Shown here piece by piece: positions 19,934-57,620 of a stretch of 64,000 bases of DNA (positions within the stretch are counted from its first letter, which is position 1; each line of letters begins with the position of its first letter). The DNA lies in IMG/VR virus record IMGVR_UViG_3300045988_085064; one strand, given 5' to 3'. The position numbers and the translations under genes were made by a program. The notes beneath the pieces are model-generated. The model did no database searches and was not told where the DNA came from. It worked only from the letters and a program-made list of their open reading frames with translations. The DNA comes from a virus.

Positions 19934-20974
19934 TTATGCTCTAGCTGTATATTTTAGATAAATCCAGCCATTACGATTATTAGAATATGCTTTGAGTAGC
20001 CCCCATCCATTTTGTTCTTCGACGATAGTATAGCCACCGCCATATGGAATCGATTGTACAATACTGTAGCCAGTACCTGGTCCACTACGGACGTTTAACC
20101 CACTCTTAGCTGTAATTCGAACAACATAGCTAGTCTTGTTTGTATTTGGTTGGGTATCAGGCTTCACCGCTTCCAGTGCAGCCCAAGTGAGCTTCCCACA
20201 GATGCCGTCGGAACTCAGACCTGACTTGCACTGGAAAGCTCGAACAACACTATCCGTATAGTCGCCCCAAATACCATCAGCACCCCAAGGACTAAAACTA
20301 TATCCAGCCTTGATGAGCAACTTTTGCATTCTTGCCACAGCCTCGCCTCTGTCGCCCTTACGAAGCGTCGGATGATTTGAGGATGTAGGAGTAGAAGGAG
20401 TTGCCGGAGTAGAACTACTGCCACCCATCTCTGCCGCGACATCCTTACGGAGCTTTGCAATATCATAGCCCAGGCCCAGGCCGTCCCAGAGGTGCTGCGG
20501 GTCCACATGGTCCGTATTGCTAAGACCCCGCCGGGTGATATCATAGTGTGTTTCTACTGCTGTATATGGGTCCCAGCCGTACTTCTTACACAGTTGCGCA
20601 ATCAGCCAAACGGCATTTTTATATGTGGCCTTGGCGTAATTCTGCGCGGAGGCTAGGTCGGAAACAGTAAACCGAGCGCCTGACGTGTAATGAATCTGAC
20701 GAGGTTCACCCATTTCAATGCCAAGATACTGAGCATTGCCAGGACTACCAATGTGCCAGCATTTATAATTGTCTGGCATACAATGCAAAATAGTTGCATC
20801 ATCCACCATATAATGAACTACATATTGTGAGCCATTATTTTGCCAATAATTATATAGTGCCTTAGCACTTGGTTGTGGTGTACCAATAGAATGTAGCACA
20901 ACGCCTCTAGGTGTAAATTTTTGAGCTGCCTTGTATCGACTGTTCCCAGTACAAATTGCTTCTGTAATGACCAT
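19934..20974 (-). CDS. Endolysin: N-acetylmuramoyl-L-alanine amidase + PG-binding + SH3 domains
   Basis: Amidase_2/PGRP-like N-terminal domain. Ser/Thr/Pro linker. PG_binding_1-like GDRGEAVARMQKLLIKAGY...DGIWG. C-terminal SH3b-like GLNVRSGPGTGYSIV. Confidence 0.8.
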   Translation of the reverse strand: MVITEAICTGNSRYKAAQKFTPRGVVLHSIGTPQPSAKALYNYWQNNGSQYVVHYMVDDATILHCMPDNYKCWHIGSPGNAQYLGIEMGEPRQIHYTSGARFTVSDLASAQNYAKATYKNAVWLIAQLCKKYGWDPYTAVETHYDITRRGLSNTDHVDPQHLWDGLGLGYDIAKLRKDVAAEMGGSSSTPATPSTPTSSNHPTLRKGDRGEAVARMQKLLIKAGYSFSPWGADGIWGDYTDSVVRAFQCKSGLSSDGICGKLTWAALEAVKPDTQPNTNKTSYVVRITAKSGLNVRSGPGTGYSIVQSIPYGGGYTIVEEQNGWGLLKAYSNNRNGWIYLKYTARA

Positions 20975-22458: not shown

Positions 22459-22722
22459 TTACTCTTGTTTTAGTTGCTTGAACACCTGATTTACACCAGT
22501 AGCGGCCAAGCCAGAAACAATACCTACAGCTACAGCCGTAATCATATCTTGCGCAGGATAATCGGGCATGACACGCATAGCAACAGCACCTAAAATGCCA
22601 CCTAGAACACCACAGATAGCTGGTAGCCACTTGTTATCCAATGCTGTTGCTTTTAAACCAAGAGCCAATAGATAACATATAACCGTAATTGCCGCGATTG
22701 AACTAATACCTAGAATTTCCAT
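22459..22722 (-). CDS. Holin
   Basis: 87 aa with predicted TM segments (ISSIAAITVICYLLALGL, LPAICGVLGGILGAV, AVAVGIVSGLAATG) and a charged C-terminus KQLKQE. Confidence 0.6.
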   Translation of the reverse strand: MEILGISSIAAITVICYLLALGLKATALDNKWLPAICGVLGGILGAVAMRVMPDYPAQDMITAVAVGIVSGLAATGVNQVFKQLKQE

Positions 22723-30134: not shown

Positions 30135-33100
30135 TCAACGTCTGCTAAAAGCTCTCTGGTATGCTAATGCTTTTACATTTTCTACAAATTTCCTTGCATC
30201 TGCCGCAGTCTGAATATTCGGGAATGACATAGTAGTATTATTAAATTCCATACTCATACCCGCTGGATTTCTATTTGATATAGCAATACCTTTATTATCT
30301 ATAACAGACCTACCCAGATTCCAAAGATTCTTTGTGATATTGCTTGGAATAATTCCATCACCAGAGTTAAGTACCCTAAGTTCTGGGCCATTTTCACCAA
30401 CCATATGAAGCCCACTTGTGCTAGATAATGTTCCATTTGCATATCCAGTAATAGAACTTAGTTTCTTATTGATTTCGTCCTGTTGCTTGATTACCTTGGC
30501 AAGTTCAGCGTCGCGTTTTGCCTCAATCACAGATTTCTTTGCTTCAAGGCTCTTGCTACGATTGTATTCATTTAGAGCTTCTTGCGCCGTGGCAATTGCA
30601 TCATAATCTTGAGCGTATTGATATCGTCCATCCTTAAAAGTATACACCCGCTTAGAACGAGCCTCTGCTAGGTTCTTTAGCAACCCCTCATATTTAATTT
30701 GGTCTTCTAACTTATTGTTTGTATCTTCAAGCGCCTTAATCTCTGCATTATACTTATCATTGATTGCGCTCTGAGTCTCTTTGAGGGCTTTAAGCTGCGC
30801 ATTCAAATTATCCTTTATCTGGGATTTTTCCCATTTGTATATCTCCTCTTGATATTTCCAATATTCCTTTTGATACTCTTGCCGCCCTTGGAAATATTTT
30901 TTATTCATCTCTTCAAGCTCTTTATAATATTGAGCTTCAGAAATTTCATCCATTGCCAAAGCGTGTTTCTTGGCGTCTAACCAAGCATCAAATTCATCTT
31001 TCCAAATATCTTTAGAACTCTTACTAGAACCTGAAGATGAAGATGAACTTGAACCAGATGAGCCAGAACTACTAGCAGAAGAATAAGACGAAGTAGGATA
31101 TGAGCCACTTGTTTCCCTGCTTTTAGACGTTTTAGGGATTTTGCCCTTAGCCGTAATAGGCGTTAGTCTCGAAACAAGGTCGAACGAAACTCTTGGGATG
31201 TATCCAAGTCTATGTGCTTGAATCGCGCCATGTAATTTTTTCCCATTTAGAATAGCTCTAGTCTCTTCTGCCGTATACACATAATCTCCATCGTGCATCT
31301 GAGTAATTGTCGGCATACCATTACCAGCGATATATGCCTCATTACCACTTTGGATAAGCTCAGGGCCTTCCTCATTTACAAGAGATGGCCCTTCTTTTGT
31401 TCTACCGCCATCTGCATTGACTTGGTATCTTGTGTCGCCAAGATTCTGAATGTTATTCTTTGCGTTTTGCGCTTGATTGGACACTCTAAGTAGTTGATCG
31501 CCAAGAGACCTAACCTGACTCGTAATACCCGACAGAGACGTACTATTCAAATCTTCCAACTCAGATGTCATCTCTGCCGTTGCAGATTCCGTCTCACCAG
31601 CTTTTTTGATAATATCGTCTATGCTCTCAGGTACATTTGTCAATCTTACATTATCCGCATCTTCCAAAGAACGCTTCATGTCTAAGATGGCATCCTTAGA
31701 ATAACCAACCTCAGATAACCCCTCTACAACCTTAGTAAAATCGATTTCATTAACGCCATTTTTGACTGTAACAATAGAACTATCAAGATTGCTAAATGCA
31801 GATATGAGCGCATCAATGTTCCAATCAACATCCGCTCCATATACCTTGCCAGCCTCAATAAGTGCCCAAAGCTGAGATGTTGTCAGCCCCATAGAATTGG
31901 CAAGTTGGTCAAAATCAGTAATATTATAGGATATAGAGTCTCCCGTTGTATCTAATGTCGCGCCAACAAGCTCTCCAGCATCTGCCAATTCTTGCATAAC
32001 TGTAACAAATCCAAGCCCGCCCGATTCAGCGTCAGAATACAAGGTTGACAATCTATCCATAATACCGGCCATATACTCAGCCTTATCAGAAGCGTTGTCA
32101 AATCTAGTTAAAATGTCATCCCCGACAAGTTGAGATAAGGCATTTCTGAATGTTAGAGAGCCAATTTGCCCAGCTTCAAATTCGTCATTAAGAGTTGAGA
32201 ACACAGATGCAAGCCCCTTAAAAGCATCATCATAGTCGCCCGTTTGGGACATGGCATTGTCAAAATTCGTTTTAGCATCTGTCGCGCCTTGAATCATGTC
32301 GGCCCATCTTAGAACCGTTTCAGCAGACGATTTGAATTTAGAATCCATATCGCTGGTCGCATCGCCTATACTACCAGCTAGATCGCTAAACCTCTTATAT
32401 AGCTCATAGACTTCATCCTTGGTAATAGATAATCTTTGAGCAATAGTATCAGCAACATCAGAAAACGACCGCCCCTCAGAATTAGCAACCGTTTGTACCA
32501 CTACCAATTGCTGATAACTATTATATTCATCCATCAAAGCATCAGATACTTGATTCCCAGCATCTATCTGTTGCTTGATGATTTCATAATATTGTTTGCC
32601 GCTTTGAATCGCATTGTCAACATCTTCGGCCCAGCGCTTAGTTTGTGCTCTGGGACTATCAAATATATTCTTAGACATCCCAGAATAGGTATATAAAGAT
32701 TTGTAATATTCAGCATTGGACTTTGCGGCCTCGTTCTGAGATACAGTATTTTCCTTAATGGCAATTCCATATTTCTTAGCGGCTTTGGCAAGAGCCTCGG
32801 TATCTGCCTCATAATCGCCTGTTACCTCAATAAGGTCAATCAATTTGGCCTTTTGAGCAATTATAGTTTGGCTATTTGTAGCGGACGCTATCGTAACAGT
32901 GATCTCGGCATCAGCAATATCCCATAGAGCATCAGACATATCTTTGTATACCTTAGTATTATCAATACCAGATATATTAATATTTGAATTCTTGGTGCCA
33001 ACAGATACACCTTCAACCCTATCCTTGCTAAGGATTGACGCGCCTTCAGCAATTTGAGCTTTCTGTTGGATATCTAGCAACTTTTCATAATATGCAATGA

Positions 33101-33978
33101 CGTGCTCTAGGTATTCCGCTTCTTTATCAATATCAGCGGTCCTGTCCTCCCATGGCGTTGCATTGATTTCCTGAAGACTGGACTTAGCATCATCGTATTT
33201 GCCGCTAATTTCTTGGACTTTATCTCCAAGTTCATTATATTCATCAATATGCTCTTGGATGGATTTATTTGCTTCGGCAATAAGCCCAGATATGCCTCTA
33301 AACACCTCGGCTAATCCAGCCACAGCCACAGCAACAGCAGCTATAATTACCAATGTTTTCGGAGCTAATAATGTTGCAAGTAAGCCACCGCCACCAGCAG
33401 TTGCCGCTAATGTGGCACTCAATTTAGCCATAGCCGCAATTATAGTGCCAACAATGCCAACTAATGCAGTTAATGCCGCAGCAAATCCACCTACACGGGC
33501 GATAACAGCCACAACATCATTATTGGCAAAACTAAGCATTGTATGCCCAGCATCAAGGAAACCGCTTACTAAATCCTTTGATAAGACACGATTGGAAAAA
33601 TCCTCAAATTCAGCCTTGAGCAGTTGTTCTTTAGCTCCAAGACTTTCCATATACCGCTCATTTTCTTTCATGGCCGAGCCATTGGATTCTAGTGCTGTAT
33701 TAGTTGCATTGATAGCTGTTTGGTAATTCTTTAAAAGAGCGGCTAGATTTTGAGTTTGAGTGGTTCCTGCTTGCTGTTGCAGATAATACATCTGCTCATT
33801 CTTAGTTAATGTCGGCCAGATTTTTGCTACATCAGTCAATACATCATATAGACTGCGAATCTGACCTTCGTCATCTTTTATCGCAATTTCGTGTTCTTGA
33901 TACCATTTTGTAAGCGCCTTACCAGTGTCAGATGATTCATCTACGACTTGGTTTAAGCGGGCTTGTACAGTGATAAGT
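30135..33978 (-). CDS. Tape measure protein, third segment (putative exon 3)
   Basis: 1280 codons. Frame is open from 33977. Begins (R)LITVQARLNQVVD..., continuing the TMP core. Long coiled coil, Ser-rich linker, C-terminal region. Confidence 0.7.
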
Positions 33979-35554
33979 CAATGTATTAACTCGGATTCGT
34001 CACATCCGATAAGGAGAATTTATTTATAAAATCAGTTAACAAGACATCGTGCTCGTCTTTTTCTAACACCCAAAATGGAACCCGCAATAACGGAATGTTA
34101 TTATCTTCACAGTATTTAGTTTTTATCTCGTCATTCTCTTTCACTGTCTCATATTTCTTTTCTGCTTGTTCTCTATATTTTTTACCACCAAATGAAACTG
34201 GCCTATAATGTCCTATTCCATCAACCTCAATGCAAGCATTAAAATCTGTTAAATAAAAATCAAATGGTAATGCTCTTTTATTGACACATCTATCAAATGT
34301 TTTTTCTTTTTCATATAGTATATTATTATTATTTAGCCACAGCTCTACTTTTGCAGAAATAGCAGATTGTTTCATTCTACATTCATTGCATTGATACTTT
34401 CCATCTGCGAAATGATATGCATCAACCTTAAAGTCGTTGCCACAAGAGCATTGAACAATAAATGGCGATTTTACACCATTGTATTCTTGATTATAAATGG
34501 TACAATCCCAATCTTTTAGAAAAGCATATATCCTTAAATTATCAAGAGCGTATGGGTTTGATTTGCCGAATCTCTCAAATGAACACCCGTTATATAGCGA
34601 GGTAACACTAATAAGCCCACGATAACCGTTTTTGTCCTGAACAACAACATTATCTTTTGACCTTATCGTTGAATCATTCAAAATACACAATCCAGATTTC
34701 CTAGCAATTTCATGATATTTGTTAGAATCAATATGGTTTGTATTGACTTCTCCCCTACTTCTTTTTATCTTGTAACATCTATTGCAGCATTTATCATCTT
34801 TTGAATAATATTTATGCCATGTTGATGTAAATTCACCGCCACATATTCCGCACTTAAACATGATTGGCATATCAATGTTTGATATATCTTCTTTTTTTGT
34901 TAATAAAATAGTACCATACTCATTTGTCTTTTTGATATATAACATCATATTGTCATAAAAATATGGGTTTTTTGTGCTAAATGTATGCTCTACATCCACA
35001 GAGTAACGTTTTTTATATGTTAAAGTGTGTTTACAAGTGTGGTAGCTTCTTTTGTATTTATATCCATCAGAATCAACACAGTCATATTTATAATCTACGC
35101 CACGCGCAATATCTTCCAATAACGTTAATCCAACTTGTTCAAATAATTTCCTTGTTTCTTCTATTGTTATTTTTTTCGACATAAATTCTCCTTCTTGCAT
35201 TTTCATGCAATGTTTAGACTATTTCTTCATCTCATAGTATTGAGAGTCTATCATTTCGATTTAAGGGAATCTCACCCACAAGCTTAGACGTACTTGCCCT
35301 ACTCCTATTGTGATATAGTCACCAATGGGATAGTCGTTTGACTCACTCCTATTCGGAGCTTTGCGCCCAAACATCCATTATAAAATACTTAGGTGTTTCC
35401 ACCATATATCATCTCTATCGTTTTTAATACTTTCGCACATTCACGCTTGTCAATCTTTCAAGACTACGTTGTAGTGATAGAGCTTTAGGAATTACTGGGT
35501 TTAGATAGATATCATGAGGCATATTACTATACCTCTAGGCACTTATTGTTTGCC
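33979..35554 (-). mobile_element. Intervening sequence 2 in the tape-measure gene (group-I-intron-like, carries endonuclease ORF); ends +/-15 nt
   Basis: It separates two TMP fragments that lie in different frames. Its 5' roughly 330 nt is paralogous to intervening sequence 1, with compensatory helix changes. The terminal base is G in the splice model. Confidence 0.55.
33986..35182 (-). CDS. Intron-encoded endonuclease candidate: zinc-ribbon repeats + PD-(D/E)xK/Vsr-like C-terminal domain
   Basis: ATG 35182 after AAGGAG. Contains CGICGG..CCNRC and CSCGN..CNEC modules. C-terminal LPFDFYLTDFNACIEVDGIGHY...NIPLLRVPFW. Confidence 0.5.
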   Translation of the reverse strand: MSKKITIEETRKLFEQVGLTLLEDIARGVDYKYDCVDSDGYKYKRSYHTCKHTLTYKKRYSVDVEHTFSTKNPYFYDNMMLYIKKTNEYGTILLTKKEDISNIDMPIMFKCGICGGEFTSTWHKYYSKDDKCCNRCYKIKRSRGEVNTNHIDSNKYHEIARKSGLCILNDSTIRSKDNVVVQDKNGYRGLISVTSLYNGCSFERFGKSNPYALDNLRIYAFLKDWDCTIYNQEYNGVKSPFIVQCSCGNDFKVDAYHFADGKYQCNECRMKQSAISAKVELWLNNNNILYEKEKTFDRCVNKRALPFDFYLTDFNACIEVDGIGHYRPVSFGGKKYREQAEKKYETVKENDEIKTKYCEDNNIPLLRVPFWVLEKDEHDVLLTDFINKFSLSDVTNPS

Positions 35555-35915
35555 CTACTTCCCTTGGCGGCGTTCCTCGTGATTTCAGTCATAGCCGTAA
35601 GCATACCAAGGGATTGTTCAAATGTATTATTGCCTGTTGCCATAGCAGCAGACATATTACCTAGGTTCTGTGCTAATTGCCCAGATGAAACAGCATAATT
35701 ATTTGATACAGCATTAACCGCATCGATAATATGCTCAGCATTATCCGCTTCAATATTGAACGCCTTCATCTGCGCAACAATAAATGATGCGCTATCTGCC
35801 GCAGAAACCGATTCATCCGCTACGTTCTGAAAAGTAGTCGCAACTTTAGCTAGAGTTGCCGAGTCAGAATCATTAAAGCTGTTTTTACGGAATTGAGTTG
35901 CGGCCTCAACCATCT
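35555..35915 (-). CDS. Tape measure protein, second segment (putative exon 2)
   Basis: TMP-core-like ...SSGQLAQNLGNMSAAMATGNNTFEQSLGMLTAMTEITRNAAKGS. Frame is closed 9 nt upstream of its first ATG and 27 nt after the proposed junction. Confidence 0.6.
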
Positions 35916-35940
35916 CTGACGGTTATAAATTATCCAATGC

Positions 35941-36027
35941 TTACTTGCCCTTCCAGCAAGCAACTGTATATGCAATCATAAATGTAAACCAGCCAACAAT
36001 GAAAATTGTAGCGTAGAAATCTCCCAT
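35941..36027 (-). CDS. Mini membrane peptide (28 aa)
   Basis: MGDFYATIFIVGWFTFMIAYTVACWKGK, a single TM segment. Its ATG overlaps the upstream stop (TAATG). Confidence 0.4.
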   Translation of the reverse strand: MGDFYATIFIVGWFTFMIAYTVACWKGK

Positions 36028-36257
36028 TACAGCTTCCCCCATCTTTCATCGTCACACCCATATTCAGCCGTTCTTTTCTGCTCTTCTTCAGCGGTTTCAT
36101 AATGAATGTTGTACTGTTCATCATCAGGCTCTTTTTTAATAAGCCCATGGTCGTGGTTGTTACGAATACCATACACAATCATCTTGATTAGTGTAACCAG
36201 TCCAACAATAAAGAACGCTGGAACAACAAAAATAAAAACCATAATTGAGAGAATCAT
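36027..36257 (-). CDS. Small membrane protein (76 aa)
   Basis: N-terminal TM ILSIMVFIFVVPAFFIVGLVTLIKMIV, then an acidic tail. Has its own promoter 34 nt upstream of the ATG. Confidence 0.45.
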   Translation of the reverse strand: MILSIMVFIFVVPAFFIVGLVTLIKMIVYGIRNNHDHGLIKKEPDDEQYNIHYETAEEEQKRTAEYGCDDERWGKL

Positions 36258-36290
36258 AATGTAACATCCTTTCTTTTATTTGGTGTCTAC

Positions 36291-36319
36291 ACTATAACAC
36301 ATATTAGATAATTTGTCAA
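36291..36319 (-). promoter_or_regulatory. Sigma70-type promoter inside intervening sequence 1
   Basis: Minus strand: TTGACA (36319-36314), a 17-nt spacer, TATAGT (36296-36291). Confidence 0.5.
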
Positions 36320-36676
36320 GGGGTTTTTAATCCCTTCCTGAATATTTCTTCGCCCTATTTTATTGGAGGGTCGCCCTGTATATTCGATTGACACATCCCT
36401 CATCAGGACTTCGCGCCCAATTTGCCCTTTTGTCCCAAATATTATACATTATTTGTGACAGATTCTTTAGGTTTTTCAACCATGGAATCATCCTTATCGT
36501 CTTTCTGCTTTCGCACTAATTGTTCATTACTAATGAACATATCACACTCAGGCATATCTCATCCTCATGTTGTAGTGATAAGGCTCTTGAGGCTTTCAAG
36601 GGTTTAGGGGCTGTTCTCTATGCTGCTTTACCATCGCAACATACCGGCTCAGACCGATTTGGTTTACCGGTTCGTC

Positions 36677-37037
36677 CTACTTCCTTGCCCATATTGGCAA
36701 GTTTCTGCGTATATGAATCAAGCGCCGCGCCAGTTAAATCCGACACCTTTTTAAATTCTGTTTGTGCCGTGTCAAGCGCTTTAACTTGAGTATACATTTT
36801 GCTTGTAACATCCACAACGGCATCGAATACTTGTCGTAATTGTTGATACGTTATAGATAGCTCTTTTGTGGCGTTATCAAGCGATTGCGTTGCACCAGTT
36901 GTTTCTTTTATTCCTTTACCATTTACGGTTGTTTCAACGTCAACGCTATATTTCCTAGAGCTTAGGTTTCTTTGTATTTTTTCAAGATCGAGTACAGCAT
37001 CGAGAACTATACTATAATTACTATTTGTTCCAGCCAT
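36677..37037 (-). CDS. Tape measure protein, first segment (putative exon 1)
   Basis: N-terminal coiled-coil ...TSKMYTQVKALDTAQTEFKKVSDLTGAALDSYTQKLANMGKEV. The ORF tail beyond this point (GRTGKPNRSEPVCCDGKAA) is not TMP-like. Confidence 0.6.
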
Positions 37038-37542
37038 TCATCACACTCCCTTTTTTTATTTGTGAGTAGGCTATAAGGATTCCTTCTGCGCAATCATCCT
37101 CATTCTTTTTGCTACTTGGGGCAACCCATGCCAATTCGAGGCCAAATTCTTCATTCGCCATCTCTATAGCTTTTTTCTTCAGAACATCTCTTTGTAAACC
37201 AGCTCTTGTACCATCAAAGAGATTAAGGTCGCCACGCCATTTACTTGGCATCAAGAAGCATGGCTTTATCTTGAAGCCAGCGCATAATGCTAATATCACA
37301 CCCTGTACTGCGCCCAATTTCTCTATGGTAGACGCGCCTTTCTTTAATGGTACTTCTTCAGCATAGAGAATTGTCGGTTTATACTGTTTAAATATACTTG
37401 ACAATTCCATAGTAAGCCCCATTACCCTATCGTGCCAATCATCGCCCTTTGGCTTAATTGTACCATATGCAATGAGTTCTCCATTATCAAATATGGACCA
37501 TCCTGTAGAAGATGTGCTAGCGTCCAATCCGGCTATAATCAT
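37021..37542 (-). CDS. RuvC-like Holliday-junction resolvase
   Basis: MIIAGLDASTSSTGWSIF (catalytic Asp) and ILYAEEVP (catalytic Glu). 173 aa. Its 3' end overlaps the TMP start by 17 nt. Confidence 0.65.
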   Translation of the reverse strand: MIIAGLDASTSSTGWSIFDNGELIAYGTIKPKGDDWHDRVMGLTMELSSIFKQYKPTILYAEEVPLKKGASTIEKLGAVQGVILALCAGFKIKPCFLMPSKWRGDLNLFDGTRAGLQRDVLKKKAIEMANEEFGLELAWVAPSSKKNEDDCAEGILIAYSQIKKGSVMNGWNK

Positions 37543-52583: not shown

Positions 52584-53783
52584 TTAATTCAAAATGTATT
52601 TCTTAGTCCATGTCTTTTGCCCATCTTCAAATAGCATAAGTAATGCACCAGCTCTTGACAACTTACGACATCTCTTGCTATAATCATCGATACCAACAAT
52701 AGATGGACATTTAATTACCTCTTTCTCTGTATTCAATCCAATACCAACAGACTGCTGTTCAAGATGATGAAAATGACCAAGTAGCAGAATATCAATATCA
52801 ATCTGGTGATAGTCCTCAAAGAACGCAATTTCTCTAGTTGCATCCTTAGTATCATCGCCATGATATGCTAGGATATTCACGCCCTGAATTGTCTTAAACC
52901 CACATTCAGCATATGGCGCAATCTCAATGTTTGGATTATCCTTTAGCCGCAACTGAACAATCTGTGTGATAATCTTAGCAATATTATCTTCTGGGAAATC
53001 GCCCTTTTTACCATTGAGCAATCTAAGTTCACTATGATTGCCACCAACTGCAATATATTCAATCGGAACTTGTAGGCGTTCGCTCAACTCAACTAGCCAT
53101 TGGCTGATATATTCAGCATACTGCATGGCGCTATCTACAATCCCAGCCTTGAGCTTCATAAGGTCTGATAGCCTCAACGCACCTTGAATGGAATCCCCCA
53201 TATCGAACACCACAAGGCGACTAAATGATGATACGGAATATGCGTCATCCTCGATATTGTTCATCAGCTTTTCCATTCGCGCCTTGAATACATCAGAATT
53301 ATACACATTGACCTTTTCACCAAACAATGAATCCATGTCAATCATTGTGCCATAATGCTCATCTCCAATGCACAATACGCCGGCTTGCTCTTTGATTGGG
53401 TCTGGCTCGAATTTGCGACTGAACTTGATGGGCTCAAGCCGATTAATGGCGGCAACAATTTCTTCATTGAGCATATCATGTCGTGCCACTTCTCGTCTGT
53501 TCGCCGCATATTCAAGATTTTCTGTGCGCAGTTTTAGACGTGATTTCTCTAGCTCCTGCTTAGCCTCTCTGAGTTGTGATAAAATATTAGCGTCTTTTTC
53601 GTCTGATTCACAATCGTCTGCGCCGTTCAGCATATTGCGGACAAATACAGCACAACGACGTAAATATTCCTCTGACCAGACGCCCCTATAATCTTCACCA
53701 AGACAACGAGCCGTCCATTCCTGCAAGTCAATTAACTTGCTATCCAGCAGCTCAGTCGCTTGTCGTATCTTCTGTAGATTCAT
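52584..53783 (-). CDS. Calcineurin-like metallophosphoesterase
   Basis: Motifs VFDMGDSIQG, GGNHSE, YHGDD and LLGHFHH. Confidence 0.65.
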   Translation of the reverse strand: MNLQKIRQATELLDSKLIDLQEWTARCLGEDYRGVWSEEYLRRCAVFVRNMLNGADDCESDEKDANILSQLREAKQELEKSRLKLRTENLEYAANRREVARHDMLNEEIVAAINRLEPIKFSRKFEPDPIKEQAGVLCIGDEHYGTMIDMDSLFGEKVNVYNSDVFKARMEKLMNNIEDDAYSVSSFSRLVVFDMGDSIQGALRLSDLMKLKAGIVDSAMQYAEYISQWLVELSERLQVPIEYIAVGGNHSELRLLNGKKGDFPEDNIAKIITQIVQLRLKDNPNIEIAPYAECGFKTIQGVNILAYHGDDTKDATREIAFFEDYHQIDIDILLLGHFHHLEQQSVGIGLNTEKEVIKCPSIVGIDDYSKRCRKLSRAGALLMLFEDGQKTWTKKYILN

Positions 53784-57591: not shown

Positions 57592-57620
57592 ATTATACCA
57601 TATATTTATCACTTTGTCAA
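57592..57620 (-). promoter_or_regulatory. Sigma70-type promoter for the RNAP operon
   Basis: Minus strand: TTGACA (57620-57615), a 17-nt spacer, TATAAT (57597-57592). Confidence 0.55.

Follow-up and report, generated by a model that had tools for sequence, protein, structure and literature searches.

Introduction

Phage group I introns are usually viewed as a selfish ribozyme combined with a homing endonuclease. What, then, does such an intron carry when the endonuclease is missing, and what would keep it in place? This question is raised by the tape measure protein (TMP) gene in a stretch of 64,000 nucleotides (nt) of the IMG/VR virus record IMGVR_UViG_3300045988_085064, referred to here, at its full length, as the window. 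Two introns interrupt the gene; the first (intron 1) and the gene cassette within it lie on the minus strand. A sequence-only reading of the window had proposed that intron 1 contains, in place of a homing endonuclease, a promoter of its own and a pair of small membrane proteins that could be expressed apart from the late operon. The comparative analysis described below supports this core proposal, which is inferred from sequence. Intron 1 is probably a group I-type self-splicing intron in which a terminal loop holds an autonomous cassette where a homing endonuclease would be expected, and early expression and a membrane role are proposed for the cassette.

Related TMP genes taken from IMG/VR, which carry L numbers here, formed the basis for placing the splice junctions. 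The lineage of intron 1 was sought in IMG/VR with a motif of 20 bases, drawn from the P6-J6/7 part of the core and independent of the cargo, and 60 stretches on 59 contigs of 15-115 kb were found. These stretches, together with the TMP loci fetched earlier and the window, make up the 73 copies analysed; some contigs were read twice, and because the two sets overlap, the 73 copies do not equal 73 independent phages.

Position and splice sites of the introns

The limits of intron 1 and intron 2 (Table 1) were placed as given because their junctions are set by uninterrupted TMP homologues. The first site is uninterrupted in four related loci (L005, L006, L007, L010), which read ...VAKTG directly into TEMV..., and the second in three others (L001, L002, L004), which read ...KGSRA into LITVQ.... 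In the Enterocloster phage PMBT24 the TMP is a single uninterrupted gene. Removal of intron 1 joins ...VGRTG to SEMVEAATQ... in the same frame as in the four intron-less loci and PMBT24, so the comparison with intron-less TMP alleles that the sequence-only reading had suggested fixes the splice site. Wherever the downstream exon is readable among the copies, the insertion lies at this same TMP site, between RTG and SEM (G followed by UC(A/G)GA(A/G)AUG). As exon 2 alone matches only an inner part of the PhageMin_Tail domain, the rest of the domain would lie in the other exons.

TMP genes in this clade have introns at several sites, with endonuclease genes in most of them. In L024 and L021, for example, three or four insertions divide the gene, and most of the spacers contain endonuclease open reading frames (ORFs). 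A second group I intron is located nine codons past the intron 1 site, following SEMIEAATK, in L066, L041, L046, L064, L073 and L082; that of L066 (1975-2237) matches the Rfam family Intron_gpI with 79.6 bits. In the window, the frame of exon 1 stays open past the splice site for another 15 codons, crossing P1 and P2 of intron 1, and meets a UAG stop right after P2 (36618-36620, minus strand). Since this frame ends past P2, ribosomes translating exon 1 would unwind P1 and P2 before terminating.

Table 1. Features of the TMP locus, in window positions
Feature	Position	Strand	Basis or remark
TMP exon 1	36666..37037	-	ends ...ACC GGU, U36666 being the last exon base; weak Pfam TMP_3 match
Intron 1, 746 nt, group I-type	35920..36665	-	core 36665..36318; cassette 36319..35941; omega-G 35920
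P2 hairpin	36620..36642	-	AUGUUGC, loop GAUGGUAAA, GCAGCAU
P7/P3 3' strand/P8 block	36340..36385	-	covariation
P9 hairpin, last core element	36318..36336	-	AAGGG-AUUAAAAAC-CCCUU; hairpin kept across lineages
Putative sigma-A/sigma-70 type promoter	36291..36319	-	TTGACA 36319..36314, 17-nt spacer, TGn, TATAGT 36296..36291
Long-range helix, 5' strand ("P9.1-like")	36302..36313	-	AAAUUAUCUAAU, in the promoter spacer; pairs with 35938..35927
Start-codon hairpin (predicted)	36253..36298	-	5' arm, -10/start-site region; 3' arm, ORF-A AUG; only on read-through RNA
ORF-A, 76 aa	36027..36257	-	predicted transmembrane helix (about residues 2-35), acidic tail, C-terminal EYGCDDERWGKL motif; homologues, dN/dS
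ORF-B, 28 aa	35941..36027	-	predicted single-transmembrane micro-protein; start overlaps ORF-A stop (UAAUG)
Long-range helix, 3' strand	35927..35938	-	AUUGGAUAAUUU, then AUAACCG to omega-G 35920
TMP exon 2, 368 nt	35552..35919	-	Pfam PhageMin_Tail positions 20-135 of 201, E = 2.9e-11
Intron 2, 1573 nt, paralogous group I	33979..35551	-	Rfam Intron_gpI 35194-35396, 37 bits, E = 1.9e-7
TMP exon 3	30135..33978	-	comparison with related TMP genes

The probable ribozyme core of intron 1

All core helices of intron 1, from P1 to P9, fall within its first 348 nt, upstream (5') of 36319, in agreement with the earlier view that a conserved RNA core precedes the cassette. As read from the sequence, P1 is formed by the exon bases ACCGGU and the guide GCCGGU (36648..36643, intron nt 18-23), with a U.G pair at the splice site. 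Just 5' of this guide, UCUGA (36653..36649) pairs with UCAGA of exon 2 (35919..35915) to form P10. The intron ends in ...AACCG, the last base being omega-G, and the 3'-terminal GAUAAUUUAUAACCG is kept in L001-L003. No convincing P10 pairing was found by eye in introns of the L012 type. In two relatives of intron 1 (L028, L068) the exon end ACCGGC, followed by AAACC, faces the guide GCCGGA, which gives a C-G pair at the cleavage site.

The central helices are well marked by covariation. P7 consists of GAAUAU (36385..36380) paired with AUAUUC (36345..36340) and encloses the 3' strand of P3 (36376..36373) together with P8, CCCU (36370..36367) with AGGG (36356..36353); the junction J8/7 reads GAAGAA. 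An R-like element (GUGUCAAUCGAAUAU) and an S-like element (GAAGAAAUAUUC) are both present, and it is these that form P7, the former as GUGUCAAUC-GAAUAU and the latter as GAAGAA-AUAUUC. Among 19 diverse members, 94.4% of the cells assigned to P6, P7 and P8 are paired, compared with 84.7% in shuffles. Seven pairs in these helices are changed on both sides, which none of 500 shuffles matched, and controls in which the strands were slid pair at 52% at most. P3 covaries as well, from GCCC/GGGC to GCUC/GAGC, and P2 shows compensatory changes in L001 (ACA/UGU), L002 (CGC/GCG) and L004 (AUA/UAU). P9 closes the core in every lineage with a GAAA-type loop, on stems that are unrelated to each other (for example AUAAAUAU/AUAUUUAU and CAAAG/CUUUG); in the window its 3' strand shares the first two bases of the -35 box of the promoter.

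Intron 2 provides the contrast within the same gene. Its match to the Rfam group I model lies below the gathering score of 50 bits, and its perfect P10 of 5 bp (UAAGU/ACUUA) was read from the sequence. Its 5' splice site is preceded by a C rather than the usual U, and this C pairs with G12 of the guide (GGGC/GCCU). Directly past its P9 hairpin begins an ORF for a 406-aa HNH endonuclease (35206..33986; phrog_559, E = 1e-39), the endonuclease gene that the sequence-only reading had seen at the equivalent place of the paralogous spacer. Intron 2 has no promoter of its own. A pairwise alignment of the two introns that set the promoter of intron 1 in the place of the P7 3' strand was rejected, as the covarying P7 (GAAUAU/AUAUUC) lies upstream.

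The predicted promoter of the cassette

The earlier reading had pointed to TTGACA-17-TATAGT downstream of the core. This element is present, carries the TG extension at -15/-14 and has a predicted start site near 36284. With a score of 11/12 and the TG, it is the best promoter-like site between 33000 and 38000. A single match of this kind is weak evidence on its own, and in the same 5-kb scan sites scoring at least 9/12 were found at chance level (20, with 18.5 expected). All 73 copies, however, contain a -35 box, a spacer of 16-18 nt and a -10 box, starting 0-15 nt past P9. The promoter spacers fall into 14 classes of unrelated sequence; the -35 is TTGACA in 12 of these classes (TTGACT and TTGATA in the others), TG at -15/-14 is found in 12 of the 14, and the -10 always has the form TA...T. 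Positions of the hexamers and the TG have an information content near 2 bits, as opposed to 0.1-1.0 bits in the spacer.

The rest of the genome gives this element a context. Across the whole window, 15 sites score at least 11/12 where dinucleotide shuffles give 3.3 +/- 1.7, and nine are TG-extended where 0.27 would be expected. These enriched promoters lie mostly upstream of plus-strand genes, including those for DNA polymerase, helicase, primase and ribonucleotide reductase. Such enrichment before replication genes suggests that the phage uses host sigma-A polymerase early in infection; the intron promoter belongs to the same class, from which early expression of the cassette by the host sigma-A enzyme is predicted.

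Perfect or near-perfect TTGACA-17-TATAAT sites, mostly with TGn, are found at 1638, 3529, 4889, 5563, 11813, 57645 and 57774 on the plus strand and at 57620 and 5901 on the minus strand, those at 57620 and 57645 forming a divergent pair between two gene clusters. A perfect TTGACA-18-TATAAT with TG (52655-52684, plus strand), in or beside an exonuclease-like gene (52584-53783), points antisense into a minus-strand cluster and could drive an antisense RNA. Within exon 2, a TTGATA-16-GATAAT site (10/12; 35703-35730, plus strand) is directed antisense toward the cassette; the AT-rich region has sites of this quality no more often than chance predicts. If the cargo were read as a type I toxin under antisense control, however, this one would be relevant.

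The cargo proteins and their conservation

Both ORFs described earlier are present: one for a 76-aa protein with a single N-terminal transmembrane (TM) helix and an acidic tail (ORF-A), and one for a 28-aa peptide that overlaps it as TAATG (ORF-B). An AlphaFold2 model of ORF-A, built on a 50-sequence alignment, predicts a helix at residues 2-35 with a pLDDT (predicted local distance difference test score) of about 90, after which come a disordered linker (residues 36-55) and two short helices (56-66, 69-72). Counted from the translation, the tail has 13 D/E and 6 K/R. A Shine-Dalgarno (SD) site lies between the promoter and ORF-A. The SD of ORF-B, GGGGGA, is inside the last codons of ORF-A, being carried by its WG codons, and the 3' splice site follows 21 nt past the ORF-B stop. 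Neither ORF has a nuclease match in Pfam or PHROGs, and more broadly the cargo proteins have no meaningful match in Pfam, PHROGs, PADLOC or PDB sequences.

Homologues of ORF-A with 30-50% identity occupy the same position in L001, L035, L050 and others, and the pairwise ratio of nonsynonymous to synonymous substitution rates (dN/dS) in the cargo family ranges from 0.02 to 0.27 at dS 0.04-1.1. Conservation of the ORFs, on which the sequence-only reading had made its proposal depend, was thus found, more weakly for ORF-B. For ORF-B a single clear orthologue was found, a 26-aa protein of L001 (about 42-45% identity), and L035 matches it weakly and in part. Because the L001 orthologue has a similar length, the idea that ORF-B is what remains of a longer, truncated gene was rejected. 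A 98%-identical copy of the locus from a human gut metagenome (L095) differs from the window by three substitutions in the 324 nt of the core that it covers and by none between promoter and start codon. In ORF-A it has 11 changed bases in 10 codons with three amino-acid changes, and in ORF-B two substitutions, both synonymous.

The family extends well beyond these loci. A profile search with ORF-A returned 105 clusters, all of 50-76 aa, on contigs of up to about 100 kb, and some clusters have hundreds of members; among these 105 clusters no Pfam domain and no PHROG family was found, and the only name given is "hypothetical protein". The contigs of two distant relatives were inspected, and on each a PhageMin_Tail fragment follows immediately downstream of the gene. 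A phmmer search of 1.8 billion representatives found five true relatives of ORF-A and one fragment. Two further matches, the repetitive, eukaryotic-looking proteins P0003 and P0008 (1084 and 1123 aa), were rejected as compositional.

Across the 73 copies the cassette contains one to three small ORFs with hydrophobic N-termini and an SD, the exceptions being two copies at contig ends. The encoded proteins have 60-117 aa and one to three TM helices followed by a charged, mostly acidic tail. In L040 and L047 three membrane-protein genes stand in tandem (64, 66 and 89 aa), each ending in a WG motif. The third gene of L001 (5091-6003) seems to be frameshifted, ending in ...TTKRKIQMII* compared with ...DIAQVKAQEKYDNDWGYIR*; this could reflect a pseudogene, an assembly error or programmed frameshifting. 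A C-terminal aromatic-Gly motif, [DEN]-[YWF]-G-x-[ILD]-[DE], is shared by all cargo types; examples are EYGCDD..RWGKL, NEWGLDDDWRWGKL, KYDNDWGYIR, EEYGPIDN, NEYGIIDSHDKEK and ENFGTIDYWEDK, as well as EYGIID in L022 and EEYG in L012. The last cargo codons are often part of the long-range RNA helix described below. In several lineages the motif lies outside all RNA and translation signals, and for this reason it is regarded as at least partly a feature of the protein.

The cassette also varies more than its surroundings. The core DNA of the window and that of L001 agree at 92% of positions, whereas their ORF-A proteins share 50% identity. Judged by such comparisons, the cassette is either diversifying faster than its flanks or being swapped between them, with each type under purifying selection. 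In the authors' judgement alone, such diversification of types is a pattern tied to conflict loci.

Basic residues follow the last TM helix in every cargo architecture. By the positive-inside rule this suggests an N-out/C-in topology, with a cytoplasmic tail for every number of TM helices from one to three. Such a topology invites the idea that the cargo is an anti-defence or host-takeover effector, in which a membrane-tethered, partly helical acidic tail would use its aromatic-Gly motif to capture or inactivate a host protein early in infection, for example a defence or abortive-infection factor at the membrane, or one of division or repair. The constant predicted placement of the tail, the retention of its motif outside the RNA-helix segment (as in the L022 and L012 examples), the early expression implied by a sigma-A promoter and the strong divergence of cassette types under purifying selection would all fit. 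Since the topology is itself a prediction, the proteins resemble no known anti-defence or defence protein and no partner can be named for them, this explanation is considered rather unlikely, if worth keeping in view.

The same features bear on the timing of lysis, which holin-, antiholin- or pinholin-like cargo might adjust. In their size (60-117 aa), number of TM helices and charged C-terminal tail, the cargo proteins resemble the three holin classes. However, holin tails are typically basic and the cargo tails are acidic, searches of Pfam and PHROGs linked none of the cargo proteins to a holin family, and early expression from a host-type promoter would run counter to the timing of holins. 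The window, moreover, has a holin of the Phage_holin_5_2 family (Hol44; 87 aa, three TM helices; 85 bits, E = 4e-24) at 22459-22722 on the minus strand and an amidase endolysin at 19934-20974, about 1.5 kb from the holin gene with two genes between. A role in lysis is therefore judged improbable. The Phage_holin_5_2 gene sits in a gap between two tail-fibre-like genes.

RNA pairings around the cassette

The cassette is enclosed by RNA structure. In the window, the promoter spacer and the 3'-terminal segment of intron 1 can form 12 bp including one G.U (Table 1), and the two partners change together in other lineages: AAUUGUCUAUUG/CAAUAGACAAUU in L012, UUGACAA/UUGUCAA in L065, UUUAAUCUUUU/AAAAGAUUAAA in L042 and UUUAGUCUUGA/UCAAGACUAAA in L083. 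When compared with shuffled partners the helix has a mean z of -2.3, with z < -2 in 21 of 41 cases. Because the promoter spacer pairs with the intron 3' end, the cassette can be seen as the loop of a peripheral helix that would return the 3' splice site to the core. One DNA segment would then have two uses, as promoter and as intron helix.

It could be argued from this that there is no gene cassette, and that the promoter motif and the ORFs are by-products of an AT-rich, structured intron tail needed for folding. A covarying helix that often includes the -35 box, along with the chance-level frequency of promoter-like sites scoring at least 9/12 in the 5-kb scan, would be expected on such an account. 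The pattern of substitution speaks otherwise. Hexamers, TG and the 16-18 nt spacing stay near invariant while the helix partners covary freely, the frames are kept with their SD in every complete copy, and protein-level motifs are kept outside the helix; the dN/dS range given above contradicts the account directly through its excess of synonymous substitution. A cassette without genes is thus very hard to credit. The sequence-only reading had set coding against required RNA structure as alternatives, and of this opposition only the two halves survive, since both hold: the ORFs are under protein-level selection, and a covarying helix closes around them.

A second pairing involves the start of ORF-A. 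On RNA that reads through from upstream, the -10 and start-site region can form a hairpin with the ORF-A start codon. Predicted accessibility from the SD to the AUG is 0.27 for the long RNA of the window and increases to 0.56 for its promoter-initiated RNA; the corresponding family means are 0.40 and 0.60. Across the family this start-codon hairpin has a mean z of -1.6, with 12 of 28 below -2. These predictions are suggestive of translation control on read-through RNA. A plausible rationale is that ribosomes moving through the cassette on unspliced RNA would open the closing helix at its 3' strand and so interfere with splicing.

Proposed expression and role of the cassette

The proposed sequence of events is as follows. 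Early in infection, host RNA polymerase would fire the intron promoter together with the other consensus sigma-A promoters of the phage. The resulting RNA would start inside the start-codon hairpin and so lack its 5' arm, and only this promoter-initiated RNA would be well translated; without the core it could not splice, yet it would yield protein. The two cargo genes would be translationally coupled, and their products would insert N-out/C-in, with an acidic cytoplasmic tail ending in the aromatic-Gly motif. No terminator-like site was found between 35941 and the splice site at 35920, and the promoter-initiated RNA probably reads into exon 2 and intron 2, where it might also express the promoter-less endonuclease gene. 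Later, on the TMP pre-mRNA, translation of the cassette would be damped and the intron would splice. Control of this kind is described for I-TevI of T4.

As to what the proteins do, the most likely role is early superinfection exclusion or some other protection at the level of the membrane, a first choice that is put forward tentatively and by analogy. An endonuclease-less intron would persist, on this proposal, because its cargo benefits the phage. Its spread may have been helped by co-conversion with nearby endonuclease-bearing introns, intron 2 being only 368 nt away; trans-homing in T4 has reportedly been described as a precedent for spread by way of a neighbouring endonuclease. More generally, it is conceivable, at somewhat less than even chances, that endonuclease-less group I introns act as vehicles for accessory genes, with a swappable cassette that the ribozyme renders harmless to an essential late gene, cargo benefit (exclusion or anti-defence at the membrane) in place of homing, and promoter DNA that doubles as the closing helix, which would allow cassettes to be exchanged while the conserved flanks stay.

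Persistence without homing could also be selfish. The cargo might be a stabilisation or interference module, made up of type I toxin-like peptides or of weapons that penalise loss of the intron or intron-less co-infecting competitors. The intron lacks an endonuclease, occurs at the same site in divergent phages and is missing from others, ORF-B is a 28-aa hydrophobic peptide, and an intron-borne function can mediate phage competition, as in PhiPA3 (PMC11620839). Against such a module, no antitoxin and no antisense promoter above chance was found in the region, and the spliced TMP is identical with or without the intron, which leaves no obvious target by which to discriminate. Trans-homing by neighbouring endonucleases would, in addition, already explain the spread. 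The chances of a selfish module are accordingly rated as slim.

The sequence-only reading had further likened the cassette to a moron. The promoter of its own, as deduced from the sequence, agrees with that label. The missing terminator and the location inside an intron within a gene, rather than between genes, do not, and neither does the phage itself, which looks virulent: a replication module is seen, and among the ORFs searched, which cover part of the window, there is no integrase.

Several observations weigh against the proposed intron and its role. Splicing, transcription and protein production from the intron 1 cassette are all deduced from sequence. Intron 1 has no match to Rfam RF00028 (Intron_gpI) even at E <= 10 in a 1.5-kb search, and its relatives have none at E <= 0.1; it is because this model is unmatched that intron 1 is called group I-type on structure and not on model membership. 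P4 and P5, whose region is extended by a peripheral insertion of some 160 nt, are assigned tentatively. The window's own long-range helix has z = 0.0, like shuffles, and its start-codon hairpin (minimum free energy -12.2 versus -2.9 kcal/mol) has z = -1.6, only modestly better than shuffles; in L012, L022 and L065 that hairpin is missing. For ORF-B, the ratio of nonsynonymous to synonymous polymorphism (pN/pS) against L001 is about 0.67 on 26 codons, so any constraint appears weak. Searches of Pfam, PHROGs, PADLOC and PDB sequences revealed no resemblance of the cargo to exclusion proteins, holins, toxins or defence components already known, and the predicted cytoplasmic tail is unlike the surface-exposed exclusion proteins of the Ltp type. 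Finally, the -35 hexamer is often inside the long-range helix, and RNA pairing could explain part of its conservation. The strongest argument bears on this last point: within the helix the -35 stays TTGACA while its partner adapts, with no covariation at the -35 itself, and for this reason the hexamer is taken to be constrained as a promoter too.

Genomic setting and host

A gene for a RuvC-like Holliday junction resolvase (37021-37542, minus strand) lies directly upstream of TMP exon 1 and overlaps the exon start by 17 nt. The order of resolvase and then TMP is also found in L099 and in PMBT24. When the region was compared with INPHARED by megablast and blastn, no record of a related phage came up, and the sole match was one of 100 bp in exon 1. 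Among cultured phages the nearest are those of Enterocloster bolteae, which have a size of about 100 kb and show 53-56% identity over exon 2. Bins of metagenome-assembled genomes that contain related TMPs belong to gut Bacillota (Coprobacillaceae, Erysipelotrichaceae, RF39-like groups and "Tenericutes"); the phage may have its host among gut Bacillota.

If the proposal is true, its consequences reach beyond this locus. An abundant intron lineage in gut phages would consistently carry a cargo other than the homing endonuclease usual in group I introns, and introns would join the sites where phages keep accessory and conflict genes. The lineage would offer a testable case of an intron that pays its way by non-nuclease cargo, and its protein family with the aromatic-Gly motif would be new material for the study of phage-host and phage-phage conflict in gut Bacillota.

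Comparison with known systems

The closest architectural parallels are the introns of phage T4. In nrdD/sunY the ORF is situated 3' of the whole core, and the 3' splice site is brought back by a peripheral helix. With td, nrdD/sunY and nrdB, intron 1, a probable group I intron, shares its place in an essential phage gene, an ORF within the loop of a peripheral element and an internal promoter (predicted for intron 1) that serves the ORF apart from the interrupted gene. The T4 intron ORFs, in contrast, encode GIY-YIG or HNH homing endonucleases under middle or late promoters; here the cargo consists of one to three membrane proteins behind a sigma-A promoter, for which early expression is predicted. 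The T4 td, nrdD and nrdB introns combine their internal promoters with a hairpin that occludes the ribosome-binding region on read-through RNA and that is not fully contained in promoter-initiated transcripts (PMC2988022). The claim that this cargo type has no precedent therefore has to be divided. Membrane-protein cargo in a group I intron was not reported in the literature found by a full-text search, outside which most subscription journals lie, and to that extent the claim stands; intron-internal promoters are known from td, nrdD and nrdB, and here it does not (PMC2988022).

A possible functional parallel is offered by gp15 of HK97, a superinfection exclusion protein of the inner membrane. 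It is small, its gene adjoins the TMP gene and has a promoter to itself, and its block to genome entry depends on the tail region of the superinfecting phage (PMC3594210). The cargo described here likewise consists of small membrane proteins with their own promoter in the tail cluster, at the TMP gene. Unlike it, gp15 is located between genes, has its own terminator, is expressed from the prophage and belongs to the YebO family, whereas the present cassette is inside a TMP intron, has no terminator and shares no similarity with gp15. In the virulent phages T4 and T5, the small proteins Imm and Sp (T4) and Llp (T5) are anchored in the membrane; promoters that the host recognises drive their early synthesis, and they keep further phage DNA out of the infected cell. 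No homology connects the cargo with these proteins; Llp is a surface lipoprotein, and none of their genes is intron-borne.

Other introns show that cargo can aid its carrier or be something other than an endonuclease. The intron endonuclease of PhiPA3 mediates competition between phages (PMC11620839). There, as proposed here, intron cargo aids its phage, but the PhiPA3 cargo is a homing endonuclease that acts on the DNA of the competitor. Group I introns with a non-endonuclease ORF include the IStrons of Clostridioides difficile and the fungal mitochondrial mL2449 intron with rps3. These introns, which are not carried by phages, contain a gene for an IS200/IS605-type transposase or for a ribosomal protein; membrane proteins are not among their products, and a host-type promoter dedicated to the cargo is lacking. 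As far as can be told from these comparisons, the combination of a ribozyme with an internally promoted intron ORF is known, while the class of cargo, the early host-type promoter, its constancy throughout a lineage and the doubling of promoter DNA as an intron helix are new.

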